Shown here piece by piece: positions 17,784 through 38,452 of a stretch of DNA of 64,000 nt. The DNA comes from a virus. Below the pieces are notes generated by a model that made no database searches, was not told the origin of the DNA, and was given only the letters and a program-made list of their open reading frames with translations. The position numbers and the translations under genes are program-made. The DNA lies in IMG/VR virus record IMGVR_UViG_3300047480_000598, positions 32,001 to 96,000 of that record; one strand, 5' to 3'. Numbering within the stretch: position 1 is the stretch's first letter; each line of letters opens with the position of its first letter.

Positions 17784-18218
17784 ATGGTTGATAAAATTGT
17801 TTGTAGTGGTGCCCTAGTATATTCAAAAGAAACTAAAAGATTTTTATTATTACAAAAATCTCATGGAAAGCACTCCGGTACATGGGGTTTAGTAGGCGGA
17901 ACTACTGTCGAAGGAGAAAATCCGTGGCAAGGGTTGCAAAGAGAAATTGTTGAAGAAATTGGATCTATTCCGGCGATAATTAAAACTATTCCGATAGAAA
18001 CATTTGTATCTAACGATACTGTTTTTCATTTTCACACATACTTATGTGTAGTCGAAAACGAATTTATTCCAGTGTTAAGTGACGAGCATTGTGGATGGTC
18101 GTGGGCTACAATTGACAAATCGCCAAAACCTCTGCATCAAGGATTAAAAAATAGTTTTTCGAGTAAAATTATTCGAGCTAAAATACAAACAATTTTTGAT
18201 TTAATGGATTTAATATAA
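17784..18218 (+). CDS. Nudix hydrolase
   Basis: Nudix box GGTTVEGENPWQGLQREIVEEIG; EH..W.W; PLH.GL. Confidence 0.9.
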   Translation: MVDKIVCSGALVYSKETKRFLLLQKSHGKHSGTWGLVGGTTVEGENPWQGLQREIVEEIGSIPAIIKTIPIETFVSNDTVFHFHTYLCVVENEFIPVLSDEHCGWSWATIDKSPKPLHQGLKNSFSSKIIRAKIQTIFDLMDLI

Positions 18219-19039
18219 TGTGGTTTAAAAAGAAAAGTTGGGTTCGATTTTATTCTCTAGATCAAAATGTTGCTACTGTTTATCCGATTATCGAATCTAA
18301 AGTAACTCCTCGAGATTGGAACGGGGTTGGAAATTTAGAGAGAAATAGGCCCGAACAAGGTAAACAAACTGTACTAAATTGTCCTGCAATAAAACAAGTT
18401 ACGAGCATAGGGTATGTATTAAAAGCGCCTGCTGATTTTGTTATTAAAACCGACGGTAACCATTCACCGATATCTTGGGAAACTCCGATTTTATTTAAAC
18501 GGCATAGTGACAAATACACATTTAGCACTTCTGATTATTATGTTAGTTGGCATAGCCCTGCACAAACAGAACCGGTTATTCCTCGCGAATGCCCTCATGC
18601 AGATAAAGAATACATGCATAGTGCGATAAAAGTCGAAACTCCATGGAGAGTAAAGTCTAGCGATGATATTGTATTATTACAATTACCTGTAACTTATAAT
18701 AACGAAGAACGATTTAGCGCCGCAGTTGGAATAGTTGATCCTCGATATATGCATGCCATTAGTGTACAACTGTTATGGCATATCACCAAAGGTGAAACTT
18801 TAATAAGAGCAGGTACACCTCTAGTTCAGTATATTCCCGTTAGTAGAAAACTACTAGAAAAGGGTAATATTGATTTTATTGTTGATACAGCAACCTCTGT
18901 TGAAGAGGAAATCGAAGATGCATATATTTTCTCAAATCATAGTCGATTTCCAAGAAGTGACACAGTAACAAATAAAATTAAAGTTATTACATCGTTGTTT
19001 GATTATTTTAGAAAGAAATATCCAAGATCTAAAATTTAA
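18218..19039 (+). CDS. Phage protein, possible dUTPase-like fold (paralog of 32861..33658)
   Basis: CPAIKQ..GYVLKAPADF, KVETPW, GIVD, IRAGTPLVQYIP. Confidence 0.6.
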   Translation: MWFKKKSWVRFYSLDQNVATVYPIIESKVTPRDWNGVGNLERNRPEQGKQTVLNCPAIKQVTSIGYVLKAPADFVIKTDGNHSPISWETPILFKRHSDKYTFSTSDYYVSWHSPAQTEPVIPRECPHADKEYMHSAIKVETPWRVKSSDDIVLLQLPVTYNNEERFSAAVGIVDPRYMHAISVQLLWHITKGETLIRAGTPLVQYIPVSRKLLEKGNIDFIVDTATSVEEEIEDAYIFSNHSRFPRSDTVTNKIKVITSLFDYFRKKYPRSKI

Positions 19040-19626
19040 ATTACTAATCGTGTAAGAGGGGCTAGATTAATATTACCTTTTACAAATGTATTAAATGCCA
19101 AACTAATCCTGGGAGTTTCTCCAATATATTCCTCAACTAAGTGTTCAACGTTACTTGGAAACAAAATCATCGATCCAACCTCTGGAGTCATAGACCAACT
19201 TCTAGAATTATATAAGTTAGCTTCTACGATATTATATTCAATAGTATCAAACTGGCTTGTGATAAATTTAATTCGTCCGCTGTCTCCAGCTGATTCAAGA
19301 AATACAACTCCGGATACTATCGAGTTTGGGTGCCAATGTCGATGATGGGATTGCCTACATTCTGTTTTATTAAACCAGCTTTCTGTAATATATATTTCAA
19401 CATCTTGATTAGCTCCCATTACCCCATAAAAGTATTCCGATAATCCATCTGATATTCCAGATAGTAAATTACTATATTTTGATTCAGATAATACATTCTG
19501 TGATGTACTAATCCAATTTTGATAATTTTGTGCCCATTGTATTTCCGATAAATCTACATTAGTAGTGTTTAAATACGTTTTAAATACAGGTTTTGAAAAT
19601 AAAGGTATTAACGACTTTTCATTCAT
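19036..19626 (-). CDS. Putative Fe(II)/2OG oxygenase, TIGR02466-like (HxH)
   Basis: SWFN, HWHPNSIVSGV, FPSNVEHLV, RISLAFN. Confidence 0.88.
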   Translation of the reverse strand: MNEKSLIPLFSKPVFKTYLNTTNVDLSEIQWAQNYQNWISTSQNVLSESKYSNLLSGISDGLSEYFYGVMGANQDVEIYITESWFNKTECRQSHHRHWHPNSIVSGVVFLESAGDSGRIKFITSQFDTIEYNIVEANLYNSRSWSMTPEVGSMILFPSNVEHLVEEYIGETPRISLAFNTFVKGNINLAPLTRLVI

Positions 19627-19698
19627 AAATCTCTCTAAATTTAAGAAAAGTATATAGTCATTTGATATATATTACTACCAAATAAACGATATTTTCAC

Positions 19699-20277
19699 AT
19701 GGAATTAAAAGAACACATCGCATCATTTACAAAAGTAATGACGCACAAAGAATGTCAAATTCTTATCGATCATTATAACACATTGTCGAATCTAAATCTG
19801 AGCTTTACTCGAATTGATCTTAGAGATGCACCAAATCATAAAAAATCAGATACAGCAGTATTTGTATTAGAAGAATCGTCTGTACGAATTACTCCAGATA
19901 TGGGATTTTTAAATTTTTTCTTAGATAGGCTTTGGAAATGCTATGAAGAATATACTACTAAGTATAGCATCCTTGAACAAGCCAACAAACATCAAGTTAG
20001 ATCGATGAAAATTCAGAAAACTCTTCCGGGTGAAGGTTATCATGTGTGGCATTTTGAATCTGATACATTAGAACATTCATCTAGACTCATAACTTGGGGA
20101 TTATATCTCAATACAGTGGAAGAAGGAGGAGAAACTGAATTTTTATATCAAGGGTTGAGAGTTTCGGCAGTTGAAGGAACATTAGTAATGTGGCCAGCTA
20201 CTTATACCCATGTTCATCGAGGTAATCCTCCGTTAAGTGGAGAAAAGTATCTTCTTACAGGATGGATTGAATATTAA
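19699..20277 (+). CDS. Fe(II)/2OG oxygenase, prolyl-4-hydroxylase-like
   Basis: GYHVWHFE, YLN.VEEGGETEF, WPATYTHVHRGNPP..GEKY. Confidence 0.92.
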   Translation: MELKEHIASFTKVMTHKECQILIDHYNTLSNLNLSFTRIDLRDAPNHKKSDTAVFVLEESSVRITPDMGFLNFFLDRLWKCYEEYTTKYSILEQANKHQVRSMKIQKTLPGEGYHVWHFESDTLEHSSRLITWGLYLNTVEEGGETEFLYQGLRVSAVEGTLVMWPATYTHVHRGNPPLSGEKYLLTGWIEY

Positions 20278-20900
20278 TGGAAGTTCTTAATCTATTTCCT
20301 ACTGAAGTTTTTGTTTTTAAAAATTTAACAATTGATAATTCTAATTTAATTATTAATCTAGAAAAGTTTGCAGACCAAGTTAAACAATCAAGTAACATAA
20401 GTTATATTAGAAATATTCATGATAAACAAGAAACTAAAGAATTGTTCGATTGGTGCAAAAATTGCTTAGAAGAAATTAGATTAAAGAATCGTTATGATTG
20501 TGATCAATTTGAAATTACAAGTAGTTGGTTTAATAGAGCATTACCAAATTCCGGAATGTGCCAAAATTACCACAGGCATTCTTTAAGTTTTTTTAGTGCT
20601 GTTTATTATCTTACCGACGGATCTCCTACTGTTTTTGAAGATCCTGTAATTCATAGAACACAAGCACAATTAGAAGTATTACGAAAAGATTTCAATCCAT
20701 ATGAATACATACAACCCGAGCCGGGAAAATTAGTAGTTTTTCCAAGTTGGCTGTATCACACTTCTTTACCTCATGTTACAGGTAAGGATAGATATATTAT
20801 CAGTTTTAACACTTTGCCGACGGGGTACGTAAATTATAATGTTGCTACAGATTCCGTTGCTCATATCACATTAGAAACTAAAGAAAAAAAATATGATTAA
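20277..20900 (+). CDS. Putative Fe(II)/2OG oxygenase, TIGR02466-like (HxH)
   Basis: LFPT, SWFN, HRHSLSFFSAVYY, FPSWLYH, RYIISFN. Confidence 0.88.
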   Translation: MEVLNLFPTEVFVFKNLTIDNSNLIINLEKFADQVKQSSNISYIRNIHDKQETKELFDWCKNCLEEIRLKNRYDCDQFEITSSWFNRALPNSGMCQNYHRHSLSFFSAVYYLTDGSPTVFEDPVIHRTQAQLEVLRKDFNPYEYIQPEPGKLVVFPSWLYHTSLPHVTGKDRYIISFNTLPTGYVNYNVATDSVAHITLETKEKKYD

Positions 20901-22380
20901 TTCAGTATGTGTGTTAGGAGGAGGTAATGCAGGTCTAATGGCTGCACTTTATCTTAAAACTTCATTACCTGCATTAGATGTATTGCTTATTAAATCTAAA
21001 AAAATCGGTACAATCGGAGTCGGTGAAGGAAGTACAGAACATTGGTCAGCATTTGCCAATGCAGTTGGGATCAACATAGTCGATTTAATACAGCATTGTG
21101 GTGCTACTATTAAAATAGGTATAAAATTTGAAAATTGGCACGGAGATGGAACTAGTTATTTTCATAGTCTTCCGGAATTTTTAGCATCAATGCATTCATA
21201 CTCTGGTGCACCGTATACTTTAATGAGATTAATAGGCGACGGCATAGGAACTGAACAATTACATTGGGACTTACCGATGAAAGGATATGTTCGAGAACCG
21301 TTAACTGACTATTATCAATTTCATTTTGATAGTGAAAAACTAAATTTGTTTTTAGAAGATAGATGTAAGTTAATCGGAATTAAAATTATTGATACTGAGA
21401 TTGTTGGACCGGAATTAGACAATGAAGGATTTGTACAAAATATTGTCGATGTTAATAGCCGACGATTTTATGCTGATTTCTTCATCGACAGTAGTGGATT
21501 TAACAGAGTCATTGCTTCTAAATTAGGAGCAGAATGGGTTGATTGGTCAAAATATTTACCTTTGAATAGTGCCATTGCATTTCAAACAGCGTATGAAGAA
21601 GAGATCCCTCCCTATACTTTAGCAAAAGCTATGAGCAGTGGGTGGCATTGGAGAAGTCCAGTACAGGATCGATATGGAAACGGATATGTATTTAGTGACC
21701 ATTTTATCTCAGAGACACAAGCAATCGATGAAATTCAAAAACAGTTTAAAGATACCATTCATATCGGACGAAAAATAAACTATATCTCAGGGAAAGTTAA
21801 TCGAGCATGGATTAAAAATTGTGTGTCTATTGGACTTAGTAGTAATTTTGTTGAACCTTTAGAGGCGAGTAGTATTTCGACTACTATAAAACAACTACAG
21901 TTATTAACTACTACAATGTGGAATTGGTCTAAAGAAGATGTTAATGGAATTAAATCTTATAATGCAAACGTCGATGATATGATGAATAACATCTTAGACT
22001 TTATACAGCTTCATTATTTTACACAAAGAGATGATACTAATTTTTGGAAATGGTGTAAGAATGAGATTGTCATGACTGATTTTAATAAAGAAAATTTAGA
22101 ATATTTTAAGAAAAATTTTGTAAATCATGCATTATTACCCGAGGACAGTGTATTCCAGAATTATCGTATATATGATTGTTTAAATTGGATTCAAGTAATG
22201 CACGGGTTACGAATGTTTGATACTGCAAAAATTAAAGAATTATATGAAAAGCATTTTGGTTTTATGAGGTATGCAGATGAACAAAATATTTCTACAATTC
22301 AAAATAATAAAACCGACGAATGGATGACTTGTCGTGAAGCGATTAATTTTGTTAAGAATCCAAAGGTATATAAATTATGA
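20893..22380 (+). CDS. Flavin-dependent halogenase, tryptophan halogenase family (H1)
   Basis: GGGNAG, GVGEGS, ATIKIGIKFENW (catalytic Lys), GWHWRSP, FVEPLEASS. Confidence 0.92.
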   Translation: MINSVCVLGGGNAGLMAALYLKTSLPALDVLLIKSKKIGTIGVGEGSTEHWSAFANAVGINIVDLIQHCGATIKIGIKFENWHGDGTSYFHSLPEFLASMHSYSGAPYTLMRLIGDGIGTEQLHWDLPMKGYVREPLTDYYQFHFDSEKLNLFLEDRCKLIGIKIIDTEIVGPELDNEGFVQNIVDVNSRRFYADFFIDSSGFNRVIASKLGAEWVDWSKYLPLNSAIAFQTAYEEEIPPYTLAKAMSSGWHWRSPVQDRYGNGYVFSDHFISETQAIDEIQKQFKDTIHIGRKINYISGKVNRAWIKNCVSIGLSSNFVEPLEASSISTTIKQLQLLTTTMWNWSKEDVNGIKSYNANVDDMMNNILDFIQLHYFTQRDDTNFWKWCKNEIVMTDFNKENLEYFKKNFVNHALLPEDSVFQNYRIYDCLNWIQVMHGLRMFDTAKIKELYEKHFGFMRYADEQNISTIQNNKTDEWMTCREAINFVKNPKVYKL

Positions 22381-23882
22381 TTAACTCTTTGTGTATTTTG
22401 GGCGGGGGTACTAGTGGATTAGTCTCAGCATTAATACTTAGGAAAGGTTGGCCTGAACTTAAAATTACTATTATCGAAAGTTCAAAATATGGAATTGCCG
22501 GAGTTGGAGAAGGTAGTACCGAACATTGGAAGAACTTTATTCAGCATGTTGATATTACAATACCTGATTTAATCAGAGAGACAGATGCTACATTTAAAAT
22601 GGGTATTAAATTTACAAATTGGCATGGTGATAATACACACTATTTCCATAGTTTATCAGAACAATGGGGCGGTATAAGTAGAACTAATGGAGTTCCGTTT
22701 ACTTTTGCAAAACAAATTAGTGAAAATGTTGATCCGTTAGAAACAGCATGGCATTTATCTAAAAATAGTCGACATATTGAACCTTTACATGATATTCTTA
22801 GCCAATATCATTTTGATACATTTAAATTAAATGAATTTTTACATAAAAAATGTATCGAACGAAATATCGATATTATTGATACTGAAATTAATGACGTGAT
22901 CTTAGATAACGAAGGTCATGTGAAGTCGTTACTCGATTGTAATAATAACATTCATTCTTACGAATTTTATGTTGATTGCAGTGGATTTCGACGTGTAATA
23001 GGTTCTAAATTAGGGGCTAAATGGATTGATAGAAGTGCGCAATTACCGATGAACTCTGCAATTGCATTCCCTACCAGTTACAAAGAAGAAATTCCATCAT
23101 ATACAGAAGCTACCGCATTAAGTAGCGGTTGGTGTTGGCGAATTCCGACGCAAGAAAGATTTGGAAACGGTTATGTATTTTGTGATCAATTTATTACCGA
23201 AACTAAAGCATACGACGAAGTACAACAACATTACAAAAATTTAGGTATTAATGATTCGATAGACATTGGACGAACTTTCAAATTTCAAGCAGGATATGTT
23301 GATAAATTTTGGATTAAAAACTGTGTAATGGTGGGGCTATCAGGTGTATTCGTGGAGCCACTGGAAGCTAGTTCGATAGGAACAACAATTCAACAACTCT
23401 TTATATTAGTAGCATCTTTATTTTATTATGATCGAACCAATTCCAATACTGCTACTAGATATAACAAACATATGACTGAAATTTCTGAAAATATTATTGA
23501 TTTTATACAATTGCATTATTTTACTCAGCGTGAAGATACTGAGTTCTGGAAATGGTGTAAACACAACATTAAATTAACAGATTTTAACGCCGAAAATTTA
23601 GATCATTTTAAAAATGATTTTGTAAATGCACAATTTTTTGGAACTCCGATGGTATTGTTTTCTCAATTAAATTGGATTCAAGTAATGCATGGACTAAGGT
23701 TGTTTAATATTCCTGCACTAAAGGAGAAATATGATAAACATATGAAGGATATTTATACTTCGGTCGTAAACAATATAATGGAAGAAGATCGCGAATTTGT
23801 TAAAAAGAGGGAATCCTTTCCTCATCGTATTGCATTAGAAATGATTAAGGAGAGGTTCAATGAAGTTAAAATACAACTCTAA
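22377..23882 (+). CDS. Flavin-dependent halogenase, tryptophan halogenase family (H2)
   Basis: GGGTSG, GVGEGS, ATFKMGIKFTNW, GWCWRIP, FVEPLEASS. Confidence 0.93.
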   Translation: MINSLCILGGGTSGLVSALILRKGWPELKITIIESSKYGIAGVGEGSTEHWKNFIQHVDITIPDLIRETDATFKMGIKFTNWHGDNTHYFHSLSEQWGGISRTNGVPFTFAKQISENVDPLETAWHLSKNSRHIEPLHDILSQYHFDTFKLNEFLHKKCIERNIDIIDTEINDVILDNEGHVKSLLDCNNNIHSYEFYVDCSGFRRVIGSKLGAKWIDRSAQLPMNSAIAFPTSYKEEIPSYTEATALSSGWCWRIPTQERFGNGYVFCDQFITETKAYDEVQQHYKNLGINDSIDIGRTFKFQAGYVDKFWIKNCVMVGLSGVFVEPLEASSIGTTIQQLFILVASLFYYDRTNSNTATRYNKHMTEISENIIDFIQLHYFTQREDTEFWKWCKHNIKLTDFNAENLDHFKNDFVNAQFFGTPMVLFSQLNWIQVMHGLRLFNIPALKEKYDKHMKDIYTSVVNNIMEEDREFVKKRESFPHRIALEMIKERFNEVKIQL

Positions 23883-25419
23883 AGTAGTTATTTTAGGAGG
23901 TGGAACAGCCGGATGGCTTACTGGTTTGTTTATAAGAAGAAATTGGCCGAATACATCTATCACTATTGTAGAAGATCCAAATAGACCTCCAATTATAGCA
24001 GGCGAAAGTGGAAATACTACGTTTCTTTCTTTATTAAGACATTTAAAAATTGATAATGACGAGTTTATTCGAGAGGTAAATGCTACACCTAAATTAGGAG
24101 GAAAATTTACAGACTGGAACGGAGTTGGAACAGAATTTATACATTGTTTGCAAACCGATTATGCTCCTTGGTTAGATGGTTGGACTGACTATGTAACTCA
24201 AAATATCGATAAGGACGATGACTTAACCTTAGGGTCATTAGTTAGTATCATGGACAACGAACGGTCTAAAGATGCTTATCTAAAAACTTTAATCGGAAAT
24301 AATATACCCTTAGCTGATGCATTTTTTGCTACATATTTTATTAAAGAAGATAAAGTTCCATTTGGATCATTGCTAGATATCCCGTGTATTCCGATGTGGC
24401 ATTTTGAAAGTCGAGGAGCTGCTGCATATTTTAAAAAAATTGGATTAGAAAGAAACATTACATTAGTCGAAGGGGAATACAAACATTCAATTCAATGTGA
24501 GAATGGAGATATTAGTAGCATCACATTAAATAACGGAGTTTCTTTAGAGGGGGATTGGTTTTTTGATTGTTCAGGATTTTCAAGGTTATTGCTTGGCGGT
24601 GTTTTAAAAGAGCCAATAGTAGATTACACGAATTATTTTCCTGCAAGATCAGTAGTTGCATGGTGGGATCAATCTTGCCCATGTGTTACAACTAATTCGA
24701 TAGCTATGAAATACGGCTGGTCTTGGAATATTAATATACGTTGTCGATCAGGAAATGGATATATCTACGATCCCGATCATATAAATCTCGATCAAGCAAT
24801 CGACGAAGTGAATCAGCGATTTAACCTTAAAATCGATCCTATTGCAAATTTCACATTTGTCCCCGGAATGATGCGTAAAGCATGGAAAAATAATGTTTTT
24901 GCCATAGGGTTAAGTAGCGGATTTTTAGAACCGTTAGAAGCAAATGGCATTGCTGTAATTGTAGAAAGTTTGTTCGGGTTACAAGATTATTGGAGTCCTT
25001 CTCAAAAAAATTATGAAAAATCGACTATAGATAGATTCAACGATCGTATTTGGTATATTACAGAAGATATTAGAGATTTCCTAACTTTACATTATCGAGG
25101 CCATCGTTCTGATAGTGATTTTTGGAGGAGTCATAATAATGACTCGTTTAGAGTACCTGATTCTCTAAAGGAAAAACTAAGTTTATGGGATCAGTTTTAT
25201 CAAGGAAAGGGACCAGAACCATATATAACCGGATATTCTCCTGCTGCTTGGTTAATGGTATTACAAGGATTAAAGATTTTTGACCATACTCGTATTGCTG
25301 ATTTAAATAAAAATTTATTACCGTTAGGTAAGAAGATACTAAATATCAATGAAAATAAATATAAGTCTATGGTTGATTCATGTTGGACTATACATCAATG
25401 GATTAAAAATATAAAATAA
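23860..25419 (+). CDS. Flavin-dependent halogenase, tryptophan halogenase family (H3)
   Basis: GGGTAG, IAGESG, ATPKLGGKFTDW, GWSWNI, FLEPLEANG. Confidence 0.9.
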   Translation: MKLKYNSKVVILGGGTAGWLTGLFIRRNWPNTSITIVEDPNRPPIIAGESGNTTFLSLLRHLKIDNDEFIREVNATPKLGGKFTDWNGVGTEFIHCLQTDYAPWLDGWTDYVTQNIDKDDDLTLGSLVSIMDNERSKDAYLKTLIGNNIPLADAFFATYFIKEDKVPFGSLLDIPCIPMWHFESRGAAAYFKKIGLERNITLVEGEYKHSIQCENGDISSITLNNGVSLEGDWFFDCSGFSRLLLGGVLKEPIVDYTNYFPARSVVAWWDQSCPCVTTNSIAMKYGWSWNINIRCRSGNGYIYDPDHINLDQAIDEVNQRFNLKIDPIANFTFVPGMMRKAWKNNVFAIGLSSGFLEPLEANGIAVIVESLFGLQDYWSPSQKNYEKSTIDRFNDRIWYITEDIRDFLTLHYRGHRSDSDFWRSHNNDSFRVPDSLKEKLSLWDQFYQGKGPEPYITGYSPAAWLMVLQGLKIFDHTRIADLNKNLLPLGKKILNINENKYKSMVDSCWTIHQWIKNIK

Positions 25420-25422
25420 ATA
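25416..25422 (+). promoter_or_regulatory. Late promoter box ATAAATA
   Basis: Overlaps H3 stop; upstream of SD GGAG of 25440. Confidence 0.5.
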
Positions 25423-25439
25423 TAGTATGGGAGAAAAAC

Positions 25440-25646
25440 ATGGCTGTTTATAAAATGATTCTAAGAGACGGTGAAAATCCGGACACTTCTAAATTGCATG
25501 TAATTGCATACTTTTGCAATGCAGAAACTAAACTTGAAGCTGCAAAATTATTTGACGACAAGTTTGGGCCTAAGTGGAATGTAGCAGGTCCAACAAAAAT
25601 TGAAGACGAATCTTCAATTCCAGGCGACGCAAATTTTATTAATTAA
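25440..25646 (+). CDS. Small hypothetical protein
   Basis: 68 aa, SD GGGAG, fills the gap exactly. Confidence 0.7.
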   Translation: MAVYKMILRDGENPDTSKLHVIAYFCNAETKLEAAKLFDDKFGPKWNVAGPTKIEDESSIPGDANFIN

Positions 25647-29940: not shown

Positions 29941-30652
29941 GATTAATCCTATATATATTTCTATCAATAGAGTTAGTCGGTAATTCTGTAGGGAATCTAT
30001 TCCAACAAGGAATACTCATACTTAGTCTCTTTGTGGTTGGATTTGCAACGTGGAAACATCTAGATGGTATATACAATCCATCGCCGGGTGTTAAAACTAC
30101 ATCGATTGCAAGATCTAATTCATCTTCTTGAATTAAGTTATTCATTATTCCTGTTCGATGCATATACGATATTCTATTATTAAATACCTTCCAGTGTGTT
30201 TCTCCTTCTACTTGAATAATAAAGTTACACGGGTAATCGTCATGGATAGGAAACGAAGTCGAAGAACCTAATCCGCAATACACATGAATAGCAGCATTCA
30301 CACTAAACATCTTTTCAAATATCGATAATAAATGATTTGTTTTTTCGCTATAGAATCCATAATTTGTTATTACAAGTCCGTATCCTTGATTAACTTTACT
30401 AAACATGAATTCTTTATCCTGCACTTTTCGATCCCATATCCATGCTTTAGAATGCTCAGGGATTTCAATCTTCGAATTCGTTTCTGGATCAATCAGTTCA
30501 AATGTATATAGTTCAGGTCTATTTAAACAATTTTCAACATCAGACCATGTAAGAAGATCATTAGAATTAGGTAGTAAATTTTTAAAAAAATGAGGGTTAT
30601 CATTAGTTAATAAATTTGTCTCATTTAATATACGTTGACCTAAATAATTCAT
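29927..30652 (-). CDS. JmjC/cupin-like oxygenase (ROX/YcfD-like)
   Basis: FPIHDD..NFIIQVEGETHWKV, LTPGDGLYIP..FH, RLSMSI. Confidence 0.85.
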   Translation of the reverse strand: MNYLGQRILNETNLLTNDNPHFFKNLLPNSNDLLTWSDVENCLNRPELYTFELIDPETNSKIEIPEHSKAWIWDRKVQDKEFMFSKVNQGYGLVITNYGFYSEKTNHLLSIFEKMFSVNAAIHVYCGLGSSTSFPIHDDYPCNFIIQVEGETHWKVFNNRISYMHRTGIMNNLIQEDELDLAIDVVLTPGDGLYIPSRCFHVANPTTKRLSMSIPCWNRFPTELPTNSIDRNIYRINHEHI

Positions 30653-31248
30653 TCTTCTGTCCTAATTAATTTTACATTGAACGCTACTGATATTCTATCA
30701 TCTTTAGTTGGGTTATGACCAACTCCGTGAGGCAAATGCCCTGGAAACATTACTAATCTTCCGGTCATTGCTTCATATGTTATAGCACTTGCACTAATAG
30801 GTGTATAATTTTTAATTATAGCTTGAGAACTTACAATATAATCGAGTGCATGATTTTTGTAGAAGGTAATATTTCCTTGTCCGGGTTTTGCTTTAACATA
30901 AAAGCAACCGGATAGAAAAGAATTATCGTGAATGTGTACCGAATTACTATTTCCGAAATTGTTAATATTAAACCAAAAATTTTCAATTTTAAGTTTACAA
31001 TAATCTTCATTATACCCGTAATCTCTAATACAATTTTCAGATTGAATTAAAATTTTATCCTCTAACTCTTGCATCTCGGCATAAAGTCCTGGTCGGAAAT
31101 CTTTGCTTTGCCATCCGCCTTCATTGCTTAGTTTTCTTCCTTCCTGATCCGCGTCTCTCATCGTTAAACATAATGATAAAATCGGTTCTGGGTCTATCGA
31201 TGATTGTTCCCACCAAATAGGTGTCGGAAAGTATAGATCATAATTCAT
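30649..31248 (-). CDS. Putative Fe(II)/2OG oxygenase, TIGR02466-like (HxH)
   Basis: SNEGGWQS, WFNIN, HIHDNSFLSGCFY, FPGHLPHGV, RISVAFN. Confidence 0.9.
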   Translation of the reverse strand: MNYDLYFPTPIWWEQSSIDPEPILSLCLTMRDADQEGRKLSNEGGWQSKDFRPGLYAEMQELEDKILIQSENCIRDYGYNEDYCKLKIENFWFNINNFGNSNSVHIHDNSFLSGCFYVKAKPGQGNITFYKNHALDYIVSSQAIIKNYTPISASAITYEAMTGRLVMFPGHLPHGVGHNPTKDDRISVAFNVKLIRTEE

Positions 31249-32042
31249 CGAAATAGATCTCCTATAGTGCGTGGAGGTAATTCATGGCTAAATGCAAATG
31301 CATGGCTCCATCGAAAATCTACCGTGTCTGATATATAAGCAAGATGACATATATTAGATTCATACATTGTTACAGTTCTCGCTCGAGTAGGTACTATTCC
31401 TATAAGATCAAATCCCCATCTCAGTAATTCGTCATCAGACAAATTGAACCAGTTATTAGACCTTGTTGGATTTTCGCTCATTATTTTCCATTCTTTATGC
31501 ATTATATGATGTTCGTCTATTTGAAAATCATATATTTCGTTATACATTCTTCCGTTATATCGGTATAATTTAGTACCGCTTTCATTTATAGAATGATCAG
31601 TAAACCACATATTTGCCACCATACCGTGTACATAGTCAATATGAGGAATTCTCCAACACGAAATAGGTCTACTTCGATTTTTAAAATATACATTTCCCCA
31701 CTCATGTATTTGTGGATCAAACCAATCAGTCCGTACATTTTTATGATAAAAATCTCTAACTAAAAAACACAATCGATTACTAACCCACTCCGGCACATGG
31801 ATAGTATCAAATGGATTAGGATCAACATTATCGTCGTGATTGTTGTCTTTTTGTATTGGAAAACATGAAATTAAATTTTTATAAATCTCAAATCCGTTAT
31901 CGATAAATGGATCTTCGGCAATCCAATATCCTATCGATTTATCGAGCTTTATATATTCGACATTCCAGTCTTCGACATTCTTAACTTTGATTACCTTATC
32001 AAAATTGTTTGCATCAGGATAGCATACTTTAAAATCTTTCAT
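31245..32042 (-). CDS. Putative Fe(II)/2OG oxygenase (HxD), divergent
   Basis: RIPHIDY, SGTKLY, YESNICH, FRWS. Confidence 0.6.
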   Translation of the reverse strand: MKDFKVCYPDANNFDKVIKVKNVEDWNVEYIKLDKSIGYWIAEDPFIDNGFEIYKNLISCFPIQKDNNHDDNVDPNPFDTIHVPEWVSNRLCFLVRDFYHKNVRTDWFDPQIHEWGNVYFKNRSRPISCWRIPHIDYVHGMVANMWFTDHSINESGTKLYRYNGRMYNEIYDFQIDEHHIMHKEWKIMSENPTRSNNWFNLSDDELLRWGFDLIGIVPTRARTVTMYESNICHLAYISDTVDFRWSHAFAFSHELPPRTIGDLFR

Positions 32043-32623
32043 TTTATATTAAAAGTCATTACAATTCGTTCATTATCGGTATTATTAGGTTGTACACGAT
32101 GTTTTATCCAGCCGGGAAATATTAATACATCATTTTCTTGTGCAGGGATCTCTTTATATAAACTTTCTTCAGGGTAGATTGGCCATGCTGATTTGTGATA
32201 TTCTAAAGGATCTTTAAATTCTATAAAACCAGAGTCAGGGGGGAGCTTTATATACGATGCAACAACAAAAGTAGTAAAATTATGATTATGCTCTAATGTT
32301 ATTCCATCTCTATAATGTTTATTAAACCAAGATCTAGTAACTTCTGAATAGGTATATGTAAATGCATGGTCCCTTCGGATTTTTGCAATTTTTTCTCCTA
32401 ACCAGTTTTGAAAATCTGATAATTCTTTCCATGTATGAGGTTGTAAATTGTTATCAACAGTTGCAGTCGATATAGCGTCTCCGTATTCTAATTTTGAATT
32501 ATTTTCAACCAATCTAAATAATTCGTCTATTTTAGGAGTTAGCGTATCTAATTCAAACTGGTAATTAAATTTCCATATATGTGGCGGAAATAAAATTACT
32601 CCACCGTCATTAAGTTGCAGCAC
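32039..32623 (-). CDS. Putative Fe(II)/2OG oxygenase, TIGR02466-like (HxH)
   Basis: SWFNKH, EHNH, FPGWIKHRV, RIVMTFN. Confidence 0.87.
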   Translation of the reverse strand: MLQLNDGGVILFPPHIWKFNYQFELDTLTPKIDELFRLVENNSKLEYGDAISTATVDNNLQPHTWKELSDFQNWLGEKIAKIRRDHAFTYTYSEVTRSWFNKHYRDGITLEHNHNFTTFVVASYIKLPPDSGFIEFKDPLEYHKSAWPIYPEESLYKEIPAQENDVLIFPGWIKHRVQPNNTDNERIVMTFNIK

Positions 32624-32861
32624 CTTCTACAACCTCTGCATATGTTTCTAATGCAAGTTTTAGGCCCATAATTGCACCTTCCATTTTAATAACATCTGTT
32701 GATAATTCTTGTCTTTTTCCGAAATCAATTGATGTAATTCCGTAAGGGTTTAATTTAACATTTGCAAATTCTTCTTCTAATTCAGCTAATTCTTTTTCTG
32801 CGTCAAGTTTTTGAATTTCAACCTTTTGAATTGTTGATTCAATTTGTTCTTTAAAGCTCAT
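32610..32861 (-). CDS. Small coiled-coil hypothetical protein
   Basis: 83 aa, heptad-like E/K/L pattern, SD AAGGAG. Confidence 0.75.
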   Translation of the reverse strand: MSFKEQIESTIQKVEIQKLDAEKELAELEEEFANVKLNPYGITSIDFGKRQELSTDVIKMEGAIMGLKLALETYAEVVEGAAT

Positions 32862-33658
32862 TATCTTTTCTCCTTTTTATATTTGTTTAATACTGTAATA
32901 ATTCGAGTTAGTCTTGATGATAATTTATCATCGGATAAGAATGCACAGTTTGATGCATAATTAAATTCTTTTTCTTTTTTTACATCTCGTTCAGATGCAG
33001 AGTCTATACTAATATTATAGTAAGAAGTATTTAACGACTTCCTTGATATAGGAATAATCTGACACAACGGCGTTCCTGCTTTAACTATTGTTTTTCCTGA
33101 AAGTACATGCCAAAATAATTGAATATTAATTAAATGTCCGTATTTTGGATCAAGTATACCAGTAGCAGCAGTAAATCTTGATTCGTTATTGTAAGAAACA
33201 GGCATTAATAAAAATAATACATCATCACTTGCTTCAATTCGCCACGGTGTTTCAATTTTAACTACTGATTTTAACGTATTAGATGGATTATCAAGTAAAG
33301 GTTCTGTTTGACTTCGTGTGTGCCCCGAGACATAAGTATCCATTCCTTGATTTATTTTAGTAAATCGATACGGTTCATTCCACTCAAATGCTACACCGTC
33401 TCCAATAGTTGAAATTGAAAAGTCGGCAGGAGCAGGAACAATCCATCCAGTTGAAATAAGTTTTTTAATTCCGGGACAATTTTTTGAAGATAATGTTTCG
33501 GGCAAATCACCAACTTGTTCTTCGTCCATAAATTTTCGTTTAACACTAATTGAACGAACAATTGGATATAGAGTTAGAACTCCAGATTCTAAAGTATAGA
33601 ATCTAATAAATGGTTTTGATTTAAATAATCTTTTAAATATATTCATCTTTTCCGCCAT
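32861..33658 (-). CDS. Phage protein, possible dUTPase-like fold (paralog of 18218..19039)
   Basis: CPGIKK..GWIVPAPADF, KIETPW, GILDP, VKAGTPLCQIIP. Confidence 0.6.
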   Translation of the reverse strand: MAEKMNIFKRLFKSKPFIRFYTLESGVLTLYPIVRSISVKRKFMDEEQVGDLPETLSSKNCPGIKKLISTGWIVPAPADFSISTIGDGVAFEWNEPYRFTKINQGMDTYVSGHTRSQTEPLLDNPSNTLKSVVKIETPWRIEASDDVLFLLMPVSYNNESRFTAATGILDPKYGHLINIQLFWHVLSGKTIVKAGTPLCQIIPISRKSLNTSYYNISIDSASERDVKKEKEFNYASNCAFLSDDKLSSRLTRIITVLNKYKKEKR

Positions 33659-35246
33659 AAATTTCGTTTTTTAGAAATTCGTAATGGCTCGGTAATTTAT
33701 TCACATAATCTATAACAAAATCTCTATATTCCTCGTATCTTCTTTTAGTGTATCCAATTTCTTCCTGTCGACGAGTAACTTCGATTCGAGATCCATTAAA
33801 GAAAATTAATTCTTTTGTTGAAATTGATTTAACCCCCATTCCTGCTGCAATAAACATATTTCCAACATACTCACTAGGGTAAGTCATCGAGCTAGTTATG
33901 TTCCCCATAAGGTTAGGATATTGTGCTTGCATTAACATAACGTCTCCCATTTGATCCGGACAATATTCGTTAATTTGTGTACACCATCTCCAATAAGGAG
34001 TATCTGTTCTTCTTGATAGTGCATAATGTTGTGATACAAAGTCTCTAAATTTTAATACTTCATATTCAACTGCAAAATTATATCCTTCGCGCTCGGTTCT
34101 TGTAATATAACCGTCACGTCGATTTAATACTTCGACTAATTTTATAATATTTTCATGCGTAGTTAACAGTCCGGTGGATTCTAGAGGCTCAACAAATCCA
34201 TAACTTAAACCAACTCCTACTACATTAAATAGCCAAGCTCTACGCCTACGACCGTGACGGATCTTAATATGCATCATTTCGGCATTTTCAGCTCTTTCTT
34301 TCGATCCTATTGTTGCTAAATGTTTTCTAAACTCTCTTTTAGCTTCTTCATCTGATACAAATCTAGAAGAATAAACATATCCGGTACCGATTCGATTCCA
34401 TAATGGAATATTCCATACCCACCCGTTATCTAATGCATGACAATCAGTAACATTGTGCATTTCTTTTTCACGGTCTTCGTAAGGAATTCGACATGCCCAT
34501 GCACTATCGTTTGCTAGATATTTGTCAAATGGTCGAAACTCTGAACCCATGATATTTTCGAGTAATAAGGATTTAAATCCAGTACAATCAATCCATAAGT
34601 CCGATTTTAATACAGTCCCATCTGCTAATAAAAGATCAGTTAAATGGCCTAGGGAGTCTTTTTTATGAGAATGTACATCTCCCAATATATGTTTAACTCC
34701 ATTTGGGATAGCAATTGTGTCTTTTAAATATTGTCCTAATAGTTGTGCATCAAGGTGATATGCGGTATCCCATCGAAAATCATAATTTCTTAGAATTCCC
34801 TGTTCGTTTCGAGTTTGTTTGTTGTATTTTGCTAGCATTGTATTGCCAGTTACATAAAATTCTGCAAATGTATCTGGTGTATATTCATCCGGATACATTG
34901 TTGCCAACTCGGACCATGCTTGTACTCCGGCCGGTTTATCAGAAAAGTCTAATCCTGCGCTAAATGGATATTCAAAATGTGTGCCGTCATTGTCTCGAAA
35001 ATTTGTAAATCTAATAGAATTTTTATAAGTAGCATTACATTTTGGCATCCATTCTTCATCTTTAAGCCCTAGTAACGAGAAGAATTTATTAATGTGACCT
35101 AATGTACTTTCTCCTACGCCAATTGTTCCGACTCGAGCTGATTCAACTAGTGTAATGTCTAAATGCGGACATAACTTAGATAATGCTGCTGCTGTCATCC
35201 AGCCACTTGAGCCTCCTCCAACAATTGTTACTGTTTTAATTTGCAT
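33633..35246 (-). CDS. Flavin-dependent halogenase, tryptophan halogenase family (H4)
   Basis: GGGSSG, GVGEST, ATYKNSIRF, GWVWNIP, FVEPLESTG. Confidence 0.95.
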   Translation of the reverse strand: MQIKTVTIVGGGSSGWMTAAALSKLCPHLDITLVESARVGTIGVGESTLGHINKFFSLLGLKDEEWMPKCNATYKNSIRFTNFRDNDGTHFEYPFSAGLDFSDKPAGVQAWSELATMYPDEYTPDTFAEFYVTGNTMLAKYNKQTRNEQGILRNYDFRWDTAYHLDAQLLGQYLKDTIAIPNGVKHILGDVHSHKKDSLGHLTDLLLADGTVLKSDLWIDCTGFKSLLLENIMGSEFRPFDKYLANDSAWACRIPYEDREKEMHNVTDCHALDNGWVWNIPLWNRIGTGYVYSSRFVSDEEAKREFRKHLATIGSKERAENAEMMHIKIRHGRRRRAWLFNVVGVGLSYGFVEPLESTGLLTTHENIIKLVEVLNRRDGYITRTEREGYNFAVEYEVLKFRDFVSQHYALSRRTDTPYWRWCTQINEYCPDQMGDVMLMQAQYPNLMGNITSSMTYPSEYVGNMFIAAGMGVKSISTKELIFFNGSRIEVTRRQEEIGYTKRRYEEYRDFVIDYVNKLPSHYEFLKNEIYGGKDEYI

Positions 35247-35269
35247 AAAAAATCCTCTTATTAGCAGGG

Positions 35270-35277
35270 TATTTATA
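35270..35277 (-). promoter_or_regulatory. T4 late promoter consensus TATAAATA heading the leftward enzyme operon
   Basis: Exact consensus between terminator and SD AGAGG of H4. Confidence 0.72.
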
Positions 35278-35299
35278 GGTAGGATTTTTTATAGTCATT

Positions 35300-35326
35300 A
35301 AAAAAGGTATCGTACGATACCTTTTT
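35300..35326 (-). terminator. Palindromic (bidirectional) intrinsic terminator
   Basis: AAAAAGGTATC-GTAC-GATACCTTTTT, a perfect palindrome at 35301-35326. Confidence 0.8.
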
Positions 35327-35342
35327 ATAAAGTTTTAAGATT

Positions 35343-35840
35343 TTAATTCAAAGATTGGTACCCTTTCCAACCAGGATATCTAATCCACGACTGTAATTCA
35401 GGAGTACTCGGAACACAGGGTTTATTAACACTCGGTTCTTCTGTTGTCGATTTTAACATTAATTCTTCAAGAGAGATAGGTTCTTCTATAACTGGTTTTT
35501 CTATCATAGTTTTTACATTAACAATATGTTGGAACCATGCACTATTTTGATCTAAACTTCCATTTTCTTTTATATCATCAAAAATCATTCCAAGTTGTTC
35601 GCCTATTTCCCCATATGCAACTTTTCTTGCAACAGCATTATTAGTGAATCCACCTTCTCTTTCAATCCAAATCATCTCTCCCCGACTTGGACTCCATTCC
35701 AATGTCCAGTCTAATTGAATATTATCCGGAGCATCAACCCATGCTATTGTAGCATCCGGTCCTTCGTATATTTCATAATCTTCTCCCGGATCACGAATTT
35801 CGCTTACGTATCCTTGATAAGAAACAATTGCTTTTTTCAT
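35343..35840 (-). CDS. Tail-fibre assembly chaperone-like protein
   Basis: RKVAYGEIGEQLGMIFDDI...WFQHIVNVKT..EKP resembles fibre-chaperone C-terminal motif; directly downstream of Gly-rich fibre genes. Confidence 0.6.
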   Translation of the reverse strand: MKKAIVSYQGYVSEIRDPGEDYEIYEGPDATIAWVDAPDNIQLDWTLEWSPSRGEMIWIEREGGFTNNAVARKVAYGEIGEQLGMIFDDIKENGSLDQNSAWFQHIVNVKTMIEKPVIEEPISLEELMLKSTTEEPSVNKPCVPSTPELQSWIRYPGWKGYQSLN

Positions 35841-35859
35841 ATTACTTTCCTAATTTGAG

Positions 35860-36714
35860 TTATTTATATTCTTCAACAACAATAATTCCCGGTCTTCCAT
35901 CTGAACCTCTATGTCCGTGAAAATATCCTCCTGTGCCGCCCGATCCCGGAGCAGCATGACCTTGGTGATTGTGAGAAAAGTGACCTCCTTGAGGATGTCC
36001 TGATGGTGCCGGACCTCCGAAGTGACTAGTCCCACCCGGACCAAAACTATGATAATGTGCTCCTCCGCTTCCGGTATGAATATTTAGATCACCGCCGGAC
36101 CCTAATCCGCTTACACCACCTGAATGTTGATTTTGTCTATTTGCTCCATGTCCTCCGCCAGCGGAACAATACGGTCCAAATGAGCTAGTTCCGCCGTCGT
36201 TACCTGCCCCTGAATAATAATTGCCGCCACCGCCGCCACCAATCGTAACTGATACTGAGCTAATTCCACTAACATCTAGTACACGTTCTGAATACCCGCC
36301 TGCTGCTCCTGATTCTCCATGACCGGACGCGCCGCCGCCTCCTCCTTGAACTTTAATTTTAATATATCTCACACCTGCAGGTCTATTCCAAGTTCCGGTA
36401 CTAGTAAATACTTGCATACTTGAAAAACCAATTTGAGCATATTCAAGACCGGTTGCAGAAGAGTTTGTTCTAAGCACAGTGTCAGTACTACCAACGCTTG
36501 ATAACCCCGTGCCTCCTTTTCCAACCGGCATTAAATTAGTTACTCTATTCGAAGTATAATCAACTGCGCCCGTTGCAAACTTTGCTGATGTTACATTTCC
36601 GTCAGCAATATCATTCACTCCTATTGTGTTGTTTGCAAAATCTGAAGAGACTAGCGTCCCGTCAATAATATGTGATCCGGTAATTTGTTTTAAAGTTTGA
36701 TAATCAAATGCCAT
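35860..36714 (-). CDS. Gly/His-rich fibre-tip or adhesin-like protein, paralog 3
   Basis: MAFDYQTLK start, short fibre repeats, FTSTGTWNRPAGV..VQGGGGG Gly-rich domain, ends HGHRGSDGRPGIIVVEEY. Confidence 0.75.
   Translation of the reverse strand: MAFDYQTLKQITGSHIIDGTLVSSDFANNTIGVNDIADGNVTSAKFATGAVDYTSNRVTNLMPVGKGGTGLSSVGSTDTVLRTNSSATGLEYAQIGFSSMQVFTSTGTWNRPAGVRYIKIKVQGGGGGASGHGESGAAGGYSERVLDVSGISSVSVTIGGGGGGNYYSGAGNDGGTSSFGPYCSAGGGHGANRQNQHSGGVSGLGSGGDLNIHTGSGGAHYHSFGPGGTSHFGGPAPSGHPQGGHFSHNHQGHAAPGSGGTGGYFHGHRGSDGRPGIIVVEEYK
35861..35868 (-). promoter_or_regulatory. T4 late promoter consensus TATAAATA for chaperone-like gene
   Basis: Exact consensus embedded in the last codons (TAT AAA TAA) of the upstream gene. 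Confidence 0.55.
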
Positions 36715-36725
36715 ACGTTAGTCTC

Positions 36726-37589
36726 TTAAAAATATTCTGTAATTACGATAATTCCCGGTCTTCCATCTGAACCTCTATGCCCACTGAAATACCCTGATGT
36801 TCCGCCGGTACCTGGAGCAGAATATCCTTGATGATTATGTGAAAAATGACCGCCTTGTGGATGTCCCGCAGGAGCAGGTCCTCCAAAAAATGTACTTCCT
36901 CCCATTCCTGACGACCGCTGTTCGTGGCCTCCACCGCAGCCTTGATATAAATTTAGGTCTCCGCCTGATCCAGTACCACTAACACCACCGTTATGATTGT
37001 TATGTCGATTGCATCCATGTCCGCCGCCCGCTGAGACATATGGGCCAAATGAGCTTCCTGCTCCATTGCCGCCTGCATTATTGTAATAAGTGCCGCCGCC
37101 TCCGCCACCGATCGTAACTGATACCGAGTTAATTCCGTTTTGTGCAACTTCTAACACTCTTTCTGCATAACCTCCCGCAGCTCCTGATTCCCCGTGGCCT
37201 CCCGCGCCTCCGCCCCCGCCTTGAACTTGAATATGAATATATCGTACGCGAGAATCTCTACTCCAAGTTCCATTACTAGTAAATACTTGCATCCTAAATA
37301 TTCCAGAGTTTGCAAAAGTTAATCCGCTTGCTCCGCTGTTCATTGATAATACTTGATATGCGCTACCAATGGCAGTTAATCCTGTGCCTCCTTTAGTTAC
37401 AGGGACAGTCCCTGTAACTGTACTATCTGATAAGATTACAGAATTAACTCCTAATTCTGTATTTGTAATTGTACTATTTGCTATTTTAGCAGTAGTAATA
37501 TTTTGATCAGCTACATCTGTTCCGGTTATTGTATTACTAATAAAAGAATCAGAAGATAAATTTCTTAATGTTTTATAATCGAATGCCAT
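36726..37589 (-). CDS. Gly/His-rich fibre-tip or adhesin-like protein, paralog 2
   Basis: Same architecture; GHPQGGHFSHNHQG, GHRGSDGRPG. Confidence 0.75.
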   Translation of the reverse strand: MAFDYKTLRNLSSDSFISNTITGTDVADQNITTAKIANSTITNTELGVNSVILSDSTVTGTVPVTKGGTGLTAIGSAYQVLSMNSGASGLTFANSGIFRMQVFTSNGTWSRDSRVRYIHIQVQGGGGGAGGHGESGAAGGYAERVLEVAQNGINSVSVTIGGGGGGTYYNNAGGNGAGSSFGPYVSAGGGHGCNRHNNHNGGVSGTGSGGDLNLYQGCGGGHEQRSSGMGGSTFFGGPAPAGHPQGGHFSHNHQGYSAPGTGGTSGYFSGHRGSDGRPGIIVITEYF

Positions 37590-37600
37590 GTGTGATCCTC

Positions 37601-38452
37601 TTAATAGTAACTTGTTATAACAATAATACCAGGTCTTCCATCTGAACCTCTATGTCCATGAAAGTGAGCGCCGGCTCCGCCTGTGCCCGGTGCAGTATGT
37701 CCTTGGTGGTTGTGTGCAAAATGTCCGCCTTGTGGGTGACTACTTGGAGCACCACCGCCAAAAAATGTATCTGCGCAGCTTTGAGCACTATATGCATGAT
37801 GACTAAATCCGCCGCCCATGTGAAGATTTAAATTCCCCCCGGATCCTGCACCGCTTACACCTCCCGAGTGTTGATTTTGTCTATTTGCGCCGTGCCCGCC
37901 TCCGGCCGAAATATATGGTCCAAATGAGCTACCATTACCGTTTCCGCCGGCTCCTGAATAATAAGTGCCGCTGCCTCCTCCTCCGATTGTCACGGCAACT
38001 GTGCTCAAACCTCTAACATCAAGAAATCTTTCAGCATATCCGCCTGCACCGCCACCTTCACCATGTCCGGATCCACCACCGGCACCACCTTGAACTTGGA
38101 CTTTAACATATCGCACATTTGAAGGTCTAGTCCATGTGCCGTTTCCAGTAAAAACTTGTAAACCTTGTATTCCATGAGTATAAAATTGAGGGTTACTACC
38201 GTCACTATATAATGCTTGAAATGCTGACCCTAAGGATGTTCGATTTAGTCCACCGCGGTTAATAGGTAGTGTCCCTGTTGTAGTTGAACTTGAATTATCG
38301 ATAGAACCGGATCCTAATTTTACATTAGTTACATTTCCTGCTGCAATCTGTGTTGCAGTAATATTGTTGTCAGCTATTTCAGCGGTAAGAATAGTCCCAT
38401 CAATAATACCGTCATTTCTAATATTTTTAAGTGATTGATAATCAAATGCCAT
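37601..38452 (-). CDS. Gly/His-rich fibre-tip or adhesin-like protein, paralog 1
   Basis: Same architecture; SHPQGGHFAHNHQGH, HFHGHRGSDGRPG. Confidence 0.75.
   Translation of the reverse strand: MAFDYQSLKNIRNDGIIDGTILTAEIADNNITATQIAAGNVTNVKLGSGSIDNSSSTTTGTLPINRGGLNRTSLGSAFQALYSDGSNPQFYTHGIQGLQVFTGNGTWTRPSNVRYVKVQVQGGAGGGSGHGEGGGAGGYAERFLDVRGLSTVAVTIGGGGSGTYYSGAGGNGNGSSFGPYISAGGGHGANRQNQHSGGVSGAGSGGNLNLHMGGGFSHHAYSAQSCADTFFGGGAPSSHPQGGHFAHNHQGHTAPGTGGAGAHFHGHRGSDGRPGIIVITSYY

Follow-up and report, generated by a model that had tools for sequence, protein, structure and literature searches.

The window analysed here is a stretch of 64,000 nucleotides (nt) corresponding to positions 32,001-96,000 of the 162-kb virus record IMGVR_UViG_3300047480_000598, and at 17784-35246 it carries an island of genes for one Nudix hydrolase, two paralogous proteins of a dUTPase-like fold (PHROG family phrog_7084), four flavin-dependent halogenases and 14 Fe/2-oxoglutarate (2OG) or JmjC oxygenases (Table 1). 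A gene 15 homologue flanks the island on one side and three genes for Gly/His-rich proteins, predicted to be fibre-tip-like, on the other. An initial annotation had listed the same enzymes between gene 15 and the fibre genes, and the inventory is borne out by Pfam, hhalign, PHROG and AlphaFold 2 (AF2) results; on inspection of the sequences all island enzymes have plausible catalytic residues. The enzyme genes form two convergent arms. The rightward arm (17784-25646) comprises the Nudix gene, a phrog_7084 gene, three 2OG oxygenase genes (one on the opposite strand), three halogenase genes (hal1 to hal3) and a 68-aa open reading frame (ORF), and the leftward arm (35246-25643) runs from a halogenase gene of the VirX1 type through the second phrog_7084 gene and the gene of an 83-aa protein to eleven oxygenase genes. 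The leftward genes are linked by overlaps, as the annotation had stated, with 1-41 nt shared at every junction, although they number 14 ORFs rather than 15. Pfam and PHROG scans gave no family match for the 68-aa ORF or the 83-aa protein, the family of the latter being present in 80 of 80 IMG/VR loci seeded with the dUTPase-fold gene. Among the 31 ORFs at 17784-39622 the same scans detected no scaffold-forming enzyme (non-ribosomal peptide synthetase or polyketide synthase), leader-bearing precursor, carrier protein or exporter. The flavin reductase profile PF01613 (Flavin_Reduct) had no match in the 162-kb record, so the annotation was right to call these functions missing; as CheckV rates the record only about 44% complete, a host flavin reductase is presumed to serve. 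All matches of the record to PF13759 and PF13640 fall within the island, and when the island DNA was compared at near identity with 50,697 phage records, a single 50-bp match was returned.

Table 1. Features of the enzyme island and its flanks (window coordinates; leftward oxygenases numbered from the distal end of the arm, 25643-32623, in which eleven Fe/2OG or JmjC genes lie in tandem and overlap, as assigned with Pfam, NCBIfam and hhalign)
Feature	Position	Strand	Basis and remarks
Gene-15 homologue	16244-17746		Pfam T4-gp15_tss
Nudix hydrolase	17784-18218	+	First gene of rightward arm; Pfam NUDIX E 5.7e-17; weak NCBIfam MutT/NudI-type matches
dUTPase-fold paralog b	18218-19039	+	PHROG phrog_7084 E 2.4e-48
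2OG oxygenase	19036-19626	-	Pfam 2OG-FeII_Oxy_5/Oxy_3; metal-binding residues kept; HxH...H type (PF13759/TIGR02466)
2OG oxygenase	19699-20277	+	Pfam 2OG-FeII_Oxy_5/Oxy_3
2OG oxygenase	20277-20900	+	Pfam 2OG-FeII_Oxy_5/Oxy_3
hal1	20893-22380	+	Pfam Trp_halogenase
hal2	22377-23882	+	Pfam Trp_halogenase
hal3	23860-25419	+	Pfam Trp_halogenase
68-aa ORF	25440-25646	+	Own AATAAATA box 17 nt upstream; kept in ~40 related loci
Leftward oxygenase 1	25643-26278	-	
Leftward oxygenase 2	26275-26829	-	HxH...H type (PF13759/TIGR02466)
Leftward oxygenase 3	26826-27437	-	
Leftward oxygenase 4	27434-28051	-	HxH...H type (PF13759/TIGR02466)
Leftward oxygenase 5	28048-28659	-	
Leftward oxygenase 6	28656-29363	-	
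Leftward oxygenase 7	29356-29967	-	
Leftward oxygenase 8	29927-30652	-	JmjC
Leftward oxygenase 9	30649-31248	-	HxH...H type (PF13759/TIGR02466)
Leftward oxygenase 10	31245-32042	-	
Leftward oxygenase 11	32039-32623	-	HxH...H type (PF13759/TIGR02466)
83-aa protein	32610-32861	-	Syn9 gp44 family; 51-53% identical to Syn9 and S-CREM1
dUTPase-fold protein a	32861-33658	-	Syn9 gp43 family; phrog_7084; overlaps halogenase gene by 26 nt
VirX1-orthologous flavin-dependent halogenase	33633-35246	-	First gene of leftward arm; full-length match to PDB 6qgm (VirX1), E 1.4e-197
Intergenic control region	35247-35342	-	Terminator-like hairpin, TATAAATA late-type box, Shine-Dalgarno sequence
gp40-family protein, 165 aa	35343-35840	-	phrog_1787; own TATAAATA box; possible fibre assembly chaperone
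Three tandem Gly/His-rich fibre-tip paralogs, 283-287 aa	35860-38452	-	Pfam Gly_rich_2; phrog_863 (tail-fibre family)

The arrangement of these enzyme genes behind tip genes recurs in cultured phages. Syn9, S-CREM1, S-RIM44, P-TIM40, S-WAM1, P-RSM6 and Sf-FR1 all show the order giant fibre gene, one to three tip genes, gp40-like gene, halogenase gene(s), dUTPase-fold gene (sometimes absent) and oxygenase genes, and in S-RIM44 and Sf-FR1 the island lies between fibre and neck genes, as here too it lies inside the structural module. When the tip protein was compared with the 50,697 phage records by tblastn, 20 records were matched and all 20 also carry a VirX1-type halogenase. IMG/VR loci seeded with the tip family and with room downstream have the gp40-like gene and then the halogenase on the same strand in 64 cases out of 64, and wherever a dUTPase-fold seed leaves space upstream, tip genes and gp40 occupy it (63 of 63 loci); a JmjC gene is also present in 42 of the 46 IMG/VR loci that leave 7 kb of room. 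The dUTPase-fold gene itself was found in 15 of the 50,697 phage records. In 14 of them the VirX1-type gene immediately precedes it, and the match in the 15th (S-RIM4) is weak, partial and in other surroundings. The gene is missing from the otherwise intact cassettes of S-WAM1, P-RSM6, L161 and L163. Seeding with the halogenase gave tip genes and gp40 upstream in 39 of 57 testable IMG/VR loci; the other 18 are of several kinds: some have convergent tip genes, some are solitary halogenases of the S-B64 type next to recombination genes, some are clusters with dUTPase-fold and oxygenase genes in records of 85 kb and 58 kb that contain no member of this tip family, and one is the L227 locus described below. 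The linkage is one-directional, because the halogenase-seeded loci are partly without tip genes: these tip genes are always found with the enzymes and the enzymes are not always found with these tip genes. The co-occurrence of enzyme set and tip family that the annotation proposed as a check is thus universal when seen from the tip side and partial when seen from the halogenase side. The association between enzymes and tips is nevertheless much stronger than the mere adjacency on which the annotation relied, given seven isolate lineages, the two complete IMG/VR series and the co-transfer described below. At L264 (9818-13354, minus strand), one of the clusters in records without this tip family, a 206-aa gene and a tandem trio of paralogs, each of about 320 aa and at least one of them carrying a C1q domain at its C-terminus, are convergent to the halogenase, dUTPase-fold and oxygenase genes; they may represent another type of fibre tip that is associated with the enzymes in a similar way.

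The carrier of the island is an uncultured jumbo phage lineage of the T4 superfamily. PA5oct-type jumbo phages have the terminases most similar to its own, which sets it apart from typical T4-like cyanophages: TerL (window 940-2535, minus strand) is 54% identical to that of Pseudomonas phage PA5oct, 43-45% to those of Rak2-like jumbo phages and 34-36% to those of the Kyanoviridae. No psbA was found in the 162-kb record, and relatives of the cassette occur on contigs of up to 380 kb. Whole-genome comparison showed that the block 25643-38452 is colinear with and 38-63% identical to its counterparts in Syn9 and S-CREM1, whereas core genes are only 23-36% identical. It follows that tip, gp40 and enzyme genes moved horizontally, as a single unit, between phage lineages that differ greatly. 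The raised identity begins exactly at the tip genes, and the adjoining fibre-shaft genes are without similarity.

Control signals were sought upstream of both arms. An exact TATAAATA box lies at 35270-35277 (minus strand), 23 nt upstream of the ATG of the VirX1-type gene, and comes after a hairpin of 11 bp and a U-run (-11.9 kcal/mol, z -4.1, 0/200 shuffles), which agrees with the late promoter behind a terminator that the annotation had seen at the head of the leftward arm. TATAAATA is depleted in the window (five copies observed against 14 expected). The form NATAAATA is present in 36 copies in the 162-kb record, of which 23 sit 0-60 nt upstream of a gene start on the same strand, the genes so headed including a 4031-aa fibre gene and the gp40-like gene. 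From the placement of TATAAATA after a terminator and the enrichment of NATAAATA before genes, late-type control of the leftward arm is a sound inference. This evidence for late control does not extend to the rightward arm, which has no canonical NATAAATA late box and shows instead CTATATA 4 nt upstream of the Nudix ATG. In Syn9, S-CREM1, S-WAM1, P-RSM6 and P-TIM40 the closest boxes of this sort lie ahead of tip or gp40 genes, and the enzyme genes come after these almost or entirely without a gap. The P-HM2 transcriptome paper, supplements included, is silent on genes of the island type, and the supplement of Chen and Zeng (2020) gives orthologue lists with no expression class for them.

As the annotation had supposed, the Gly/His-rich neighbours of the enzymes have a fibre-like character, which we take from the Gly_rich_2 and PHROG tail-fibre matches together with an AF2 model of a tip protein (predicted local distance difference test score, pLDDT, 78). 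In the PDB the model is matched best by the fibre of cyanophage Pam3 (E 2.7e-7) and by tail-tip chains of mycobacteriophage Bxb1, the glycine-rich domain of ALK/LTK ranking next; a sequence-profile search of the PDB with the tip family gave no match. No variation is seen at two His residues and one Tyr across 32 diverse tip homologues, a third His is kept in at least 90%, and in a 13-sequence alignment the Trp of the 'TW' motif is at least 90% kept. The part of the Syn9 proteome table that was examined lists gp32-gp34 and does not list the tip-type proteins gp38 and gp39. The gp40-family gene was always found between tip genes and halogenase in the loci examined; its Atlas label is 'Gp40 family', with weak leads to tail-assembly chaperone families. 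Partial bacterial relatives of the glycine-rich domain (n=24) cover the N-terminal half only and have no halogenase or oxygenase neighbours, and the three full-length matches filed as bacterial each come with the whole cassette. Full cassettes are present at L165-L167, in an Acidimicrobiaceae metagenome-assembled genome, a draft genome of Nonlabens xiamenensis (188-kb contig) and a single-cell genome of Prochlorococcus (189-kb contig); these are probably phage sequences that were binned, or sequenced together, with cells. Giant presumed fibre or structural ORFs of 4031 aa (39640-51735, minus strand) and 2508 aa (51800-59326, minus strand) lie beyond the tip genes, with a third of 4865 aa at 127482-142079 (plus strand) of the record; these share only short stretches with the fibres of Syn9 or S-CREM1.

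The halogenase at the head of the leftward arm resembles VirX1, the iodinating enzyme of Syn10 (PDB 6QGM), over its full length at about 55% identity, including the flavin-binding motif, the lysine and the WxWxIP motif (here GGGSSG, Lys75 and WVWNIP). It is 63% identical to the S-CREM1 homologue and 55% identical to those of Syn9 and Syn10, and is orthologous to Syn9 gp42. All four halogenases match the Pfam Trp_halogenase profile (E 1e-84 to 2e-108; 1e-84 to 1e-98 for hal1 to hal3) and keep the GxGxxG flavin site and the catalytic lysine, WxWxIP being exact in hal2 and the VirX1-type enzyme and variant in hal1 (WHWRSP) and hal3 (WSWNIN). The three rightward enzymes are only 23-29% identical to VirX1 and only 25-29% identical to Kyanoviridae halogenases, are kept as an inverted arm in dozens of related IMG/VR loci and are additions of the jumbo lineage.

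Twelve of the oxygenase ORFs are named as such by Pfam (2OG-FeII_Oxy_2/3/5, DUF6445 or JmjC_2), those of the rightward arm at E 1e-9 to 5e-19. The 13th, leftward oxygenase 2, joins the PF13759-type paralogs by hhalign (91%, E 1e-6), and the 14th, leftward oxygenase 10, keeps the conserved HxD...H and Arg and is orthologous to Syn9 gp46, which was counted among the dioxygenases by Iyer (2010; PMC2938197). The 13 ORFs of classical 2OG type fall into at least five groups separable by hhalign, which linked leftward oxygenase 10, the gp40-like protein, the 83-aa protein and the dUTPase-fold proteins to none of them; within each family the alignments show that HxD/H...H and Arg are kept. By Pfam several of the enzymes are of the prolyl 4-hydroxylase (P4H) type, and one has a weak AlkB-like match. 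The leftward oxygenases are colinear with Syn9 gp45-gp54 at 28-53% identity. The JmjC protein (Pfam JmjC_2 E 5.7e-16), which is 53% identical to Syn9 gp49, has the core and the triad (H137/D139/H201), its 241 aa leaving no room for the dimerisation and winged-helix domains of ROX-type enzymes; it has been assigned to the MINA/NO66 clade of protein hydroxylases (PMC2938197). The PF13759/TIGR02466-type oxygenases keep HxH...H and Arg in place of the customary HxD/E...H, pointing to iron bound by three histidines. We dropped a possible tie between the presence of JmjC and the HNHxxH histidine cluster of the tips, as the pattern is inconsistent: one lineage without JmjC does lack the cluster, but S-RIM44 has JmjC yet a degraded cluster, and Sf-FR1 has tip genes without JmjC.

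The two dUTPase-fold paralogs are 37% identical and share the family-invariant residues, including a cysteine (Cys61) that is invariant across 32 sequences; paralog b is 44-46% identical to Syn9 gp43 and S-CREM1_70. An AF2 model of protein a (pLDDT 79) matches trimeric dUTPases (Foldseek E 6.5e-5) and has the dUTPase beta-barrel fold, with 128 of 129 residues aligned by VIA at Z 10.4. The resemblance at dUTPase motifs I, III and IV is only loose, as judged by eye, and the C-terminal arm with motif V is replaced by helices. The dUTPase profile PF00692 had no match at E<=10 in phrog_7084 members or in the genome, and a sequence-profile search of the PDB with the family also gave none.

The gene set is not new and is here an enlarged copy of the Syn9-type cluster in a different phage lineage. 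The Syn9 cluster (gp40-gp54), including the dUTPase-fold protein and two tryptophan halogenases, was described by Iyer (2010), who read it as organohalogen secondary-metabolite or peptide chemistry and did not remark on a link to Gly-rich tip genes in Syn9 (PMC2938197). Gly-rich and tail-collar proteins were proposed in the same work as dioxygenase substrates in bacterial operons. The island shares with Syn9 and Syn10, in the same gene order and at 38-63% identity across the block, the gp40-family protein, the VirX1-type halogenase, the dUTPase-fold protein with its conserved Cys, the small protein, the 2OG array and one JmjC protein of the MINA/NO66 clade. It differs from Syn9 in having 14 oxygenases instead of 10 and four halogenases instead of two, in the extra inverted arm (Nudix, second dUTPase-fold paralog and three divergent halogenases) and in a carrier of a PA5oct-like jumbo lineage rather than of the Kyanoviridae. 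What the present locus adds is this jumbo carrier from outside the Kyanoviridae and the horizontal transfer of the block as a single unit. A halogenase/carbamoyltransferase cluster of S-SSM6a/P-SSM2-type cyanophages has likewise been read as secondary-metabolite chemistry (Iyer 2021; PMC7824862); it resembles the island in combining a halogenase with 2OG or cupin hydroxylases and differs in its carbamoyltransferases, methylases and sugar enzymes, which the island, joined instead to tip genes, does not have. For the multiple 2OG genes and prnA-like halogenases of cyanomyoviruses, DNA repair or 2OG/nitrogen signalling has been suggested, or the function left as uninvestigated (PMC3037559; PMC9602691).

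For the actual expression timing, the substrate and the chemistry of the island we infer the following scheme. The enzymes would be made late from gp55-type promoters, alongside the structural proteins; the JmjC and 2OG enzymes would hydroxylate phage structural proteins, and the VirX1-type enzyme and the three further flavin halogenases would halogenate them using reduced flavin supplied by the host. Modification would take place before or during fibre assembly and would chiefly concern the Gly/His-rich tip proteins, possibly along with the giant fibres. We consider such tailoring of virion proteins to be the best-supported reading, at a probability of roughly 40%, because it explains the linkage, the co-transfer, the late-type promoter, the presence of protein-hydroxylase families and the lack of a scaffold-forming enzyme; the proposal of Iyer (2010) on Gly-rich substrates in bacterial operons is a precedent for it. 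More tentatively still, the cassette might be a mobile module for host recognition and tailoring, in which tips hydroxylated and halogenated by up to 18 enzymes would be the natural substrate of the VirX1-type enzyme; if so, a virus structural protein would for the first time be seen to be halogenated in nature. The modification of a virus's own structural or repeat-rich proteins by viral 2OG oxygenases is exemplified by the collagen lysyl hydroxylase/glycosyltransferase L230 of mimivirus and the prolyl 4-hydroxylase of PBCV-1. The mechanism is the same as that proposed here, but these are single enzymes of giant eukaryotic viruses, they act on collagen-like or proline-rich repeats and no halogenases accompany them; we know of no phage example of virion-protein hydroxylation of this kind. 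The flavin halogenases MibH and SrpI, from pathways for peptides made on the ribosome and modified after translation (RiPPs), show that the Trp-halogenase family can act on ribosomal peptides, although these are short leader-bearing peptides of a biosynthetic cluster, whereas here no leader is evident and the candidates are folded proteins of 283-287 aa.

Several observations weigh against tailoring of virion proteins. VirX1 reportedly halogenates diverse small aromatics in vitro and, to our knowledge, is known solely as a small-molecule halogenase. Fourteen distinct oxygenases are many for a few small substrates, the sites downstream of tail-fibre genes often host cargo genes, so that the linkage could be hitch-hiking, and the dUTPase fold and the Nudix protein point to nucleotide-like ligands. 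Halogenase, dUTPase-fold and oxygenase genes cluster in records of 280 kb, 85 kb and 58 kb from which this tip family is absent. Replication modules contain halogenases (S-B64, S-H35) and JmjC genes (Syn30, S-P4) that stand alone. At L227 (5956-12615 of IMGVR_UViG_3300042402_002641, 280 kb, 79% complete) a VirX1-type gene of 58% identity has genes for a luciferase-like monooxygenase, for a carbamoyltransferase and for a glycosyltransferase-like protein as neighbours; this context, of the S-SSM6a/P-SSM2 kind, is one of small-molecule or glycan chemistry, and the tip family was found nowhere in the record. The last case and the behaviour of VirX1 in vitro would fit small-molecule or peptide secondary metabolism, in which a host-derived aromatic, amino acid or glycan would become an organohalogen and the adjacency to fibre genes would be merely positional. 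This is the published view of Syn9 (Iyer 2010, PMC2938197) and of the related cluster (Iyer 2021, PMC7824862), and it might draw on an adenylate-forming (AMP-binding) enzyme encoded 4 kb from the island (12318-13613, minus strand, 431 aa, among structural genes). We regard it as a serious rival, though a less likely one, as the island has no scaffold-forming enzyme, carrier protein or exporter, the late-type promoter and the placement in a virion module are odd for a metabolite that is to benefit the infection, and the 64/64 linkage to tip genes and the co-transfer are left unexplained.

Host proteins (ribosome, EF-Tu, phycobilisome) or the host envelope might be modified instead, with remodelling of the cell or a block to superinfection as the outcome. 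ROX-type JmjC and P4H-type enzymes do modify bacterial translation proteins, single JmjC or 2OG genes occur in replication or early-middle regions of other cyanophages and S-SCSM1 has 24 scattered 2OG genes (PMC9602691), yet a late-type promoter would leave little time for host reprogramming and the tight coupling to tip genes would go unexplained, which makes this route decidedly unlikely. Processing by the dUTPase-fold and Nudix proteins of modified (deoxy)nucleotides made by the oxygenases and halogenases would accord with the fold (Z about 10), the matches of the Nudix protein to NTP pyrophosphatase families, the AlkB-like match of one oxygenase and the overlap of the dUTPase-fold gene with the halogenase gene. 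Modification of nucleotides or DNA is improbable all the same, since PF00692 is unmatched even at so permissive a threshold, the island has no TET/JBP-type oxygenase, late-type control and a fibre context are atypical for nucleotide metabolism and four intact cassettes (S-WAM1, P-RSM6, L161 and L163) do without the dUTPase-fold gene. Consumption of 2OG by the 2OG enzymes with a shift in NtcA signalling, a nitrogen-stress effect suggested for cyanophage 2OG oxygenases by Sullivan (2010; PMC3037559), would account for neither 14 distinct families in a fixed order nor the halogenases nor the fibre linkage, and we give it hardly any credence.

Viral flavin halogenases such as VirX1 and the many 2OG oxygenases of marine phages are abundant in the oceans; a 2022 paper described the functions of such enzymes as not yet investigated (PMC9602691). 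With the fixed linkage to and co-transfer with tip genes the substrate question becomes a specific experiment, for which cultured phages with the cassette exist (Syn9, Syn10, S-CREM1, P-TIM40 and S-RIM44). If receptor-binding proteins are indeed tailored, host recognition by phages would gain a new layer of chemistry and biocatalysis a new class of protein-acting halogenase; if they are not, the small-molecule view already in print holds and the enzymes are hitch-hikers on a mobile cassette of fibre genes.

Two further genes of the structural region may be recorded. A 572-aa protein with a dNMP-kinase-like domain (10621-12339, minus strand) is, like the AMP-binding enzyme, encoded among structural genes, and the tail sheath protein (6866-10216, minus strand) is unusually long at 1116 aa and carries an insertion with a flagellin-IN motif.

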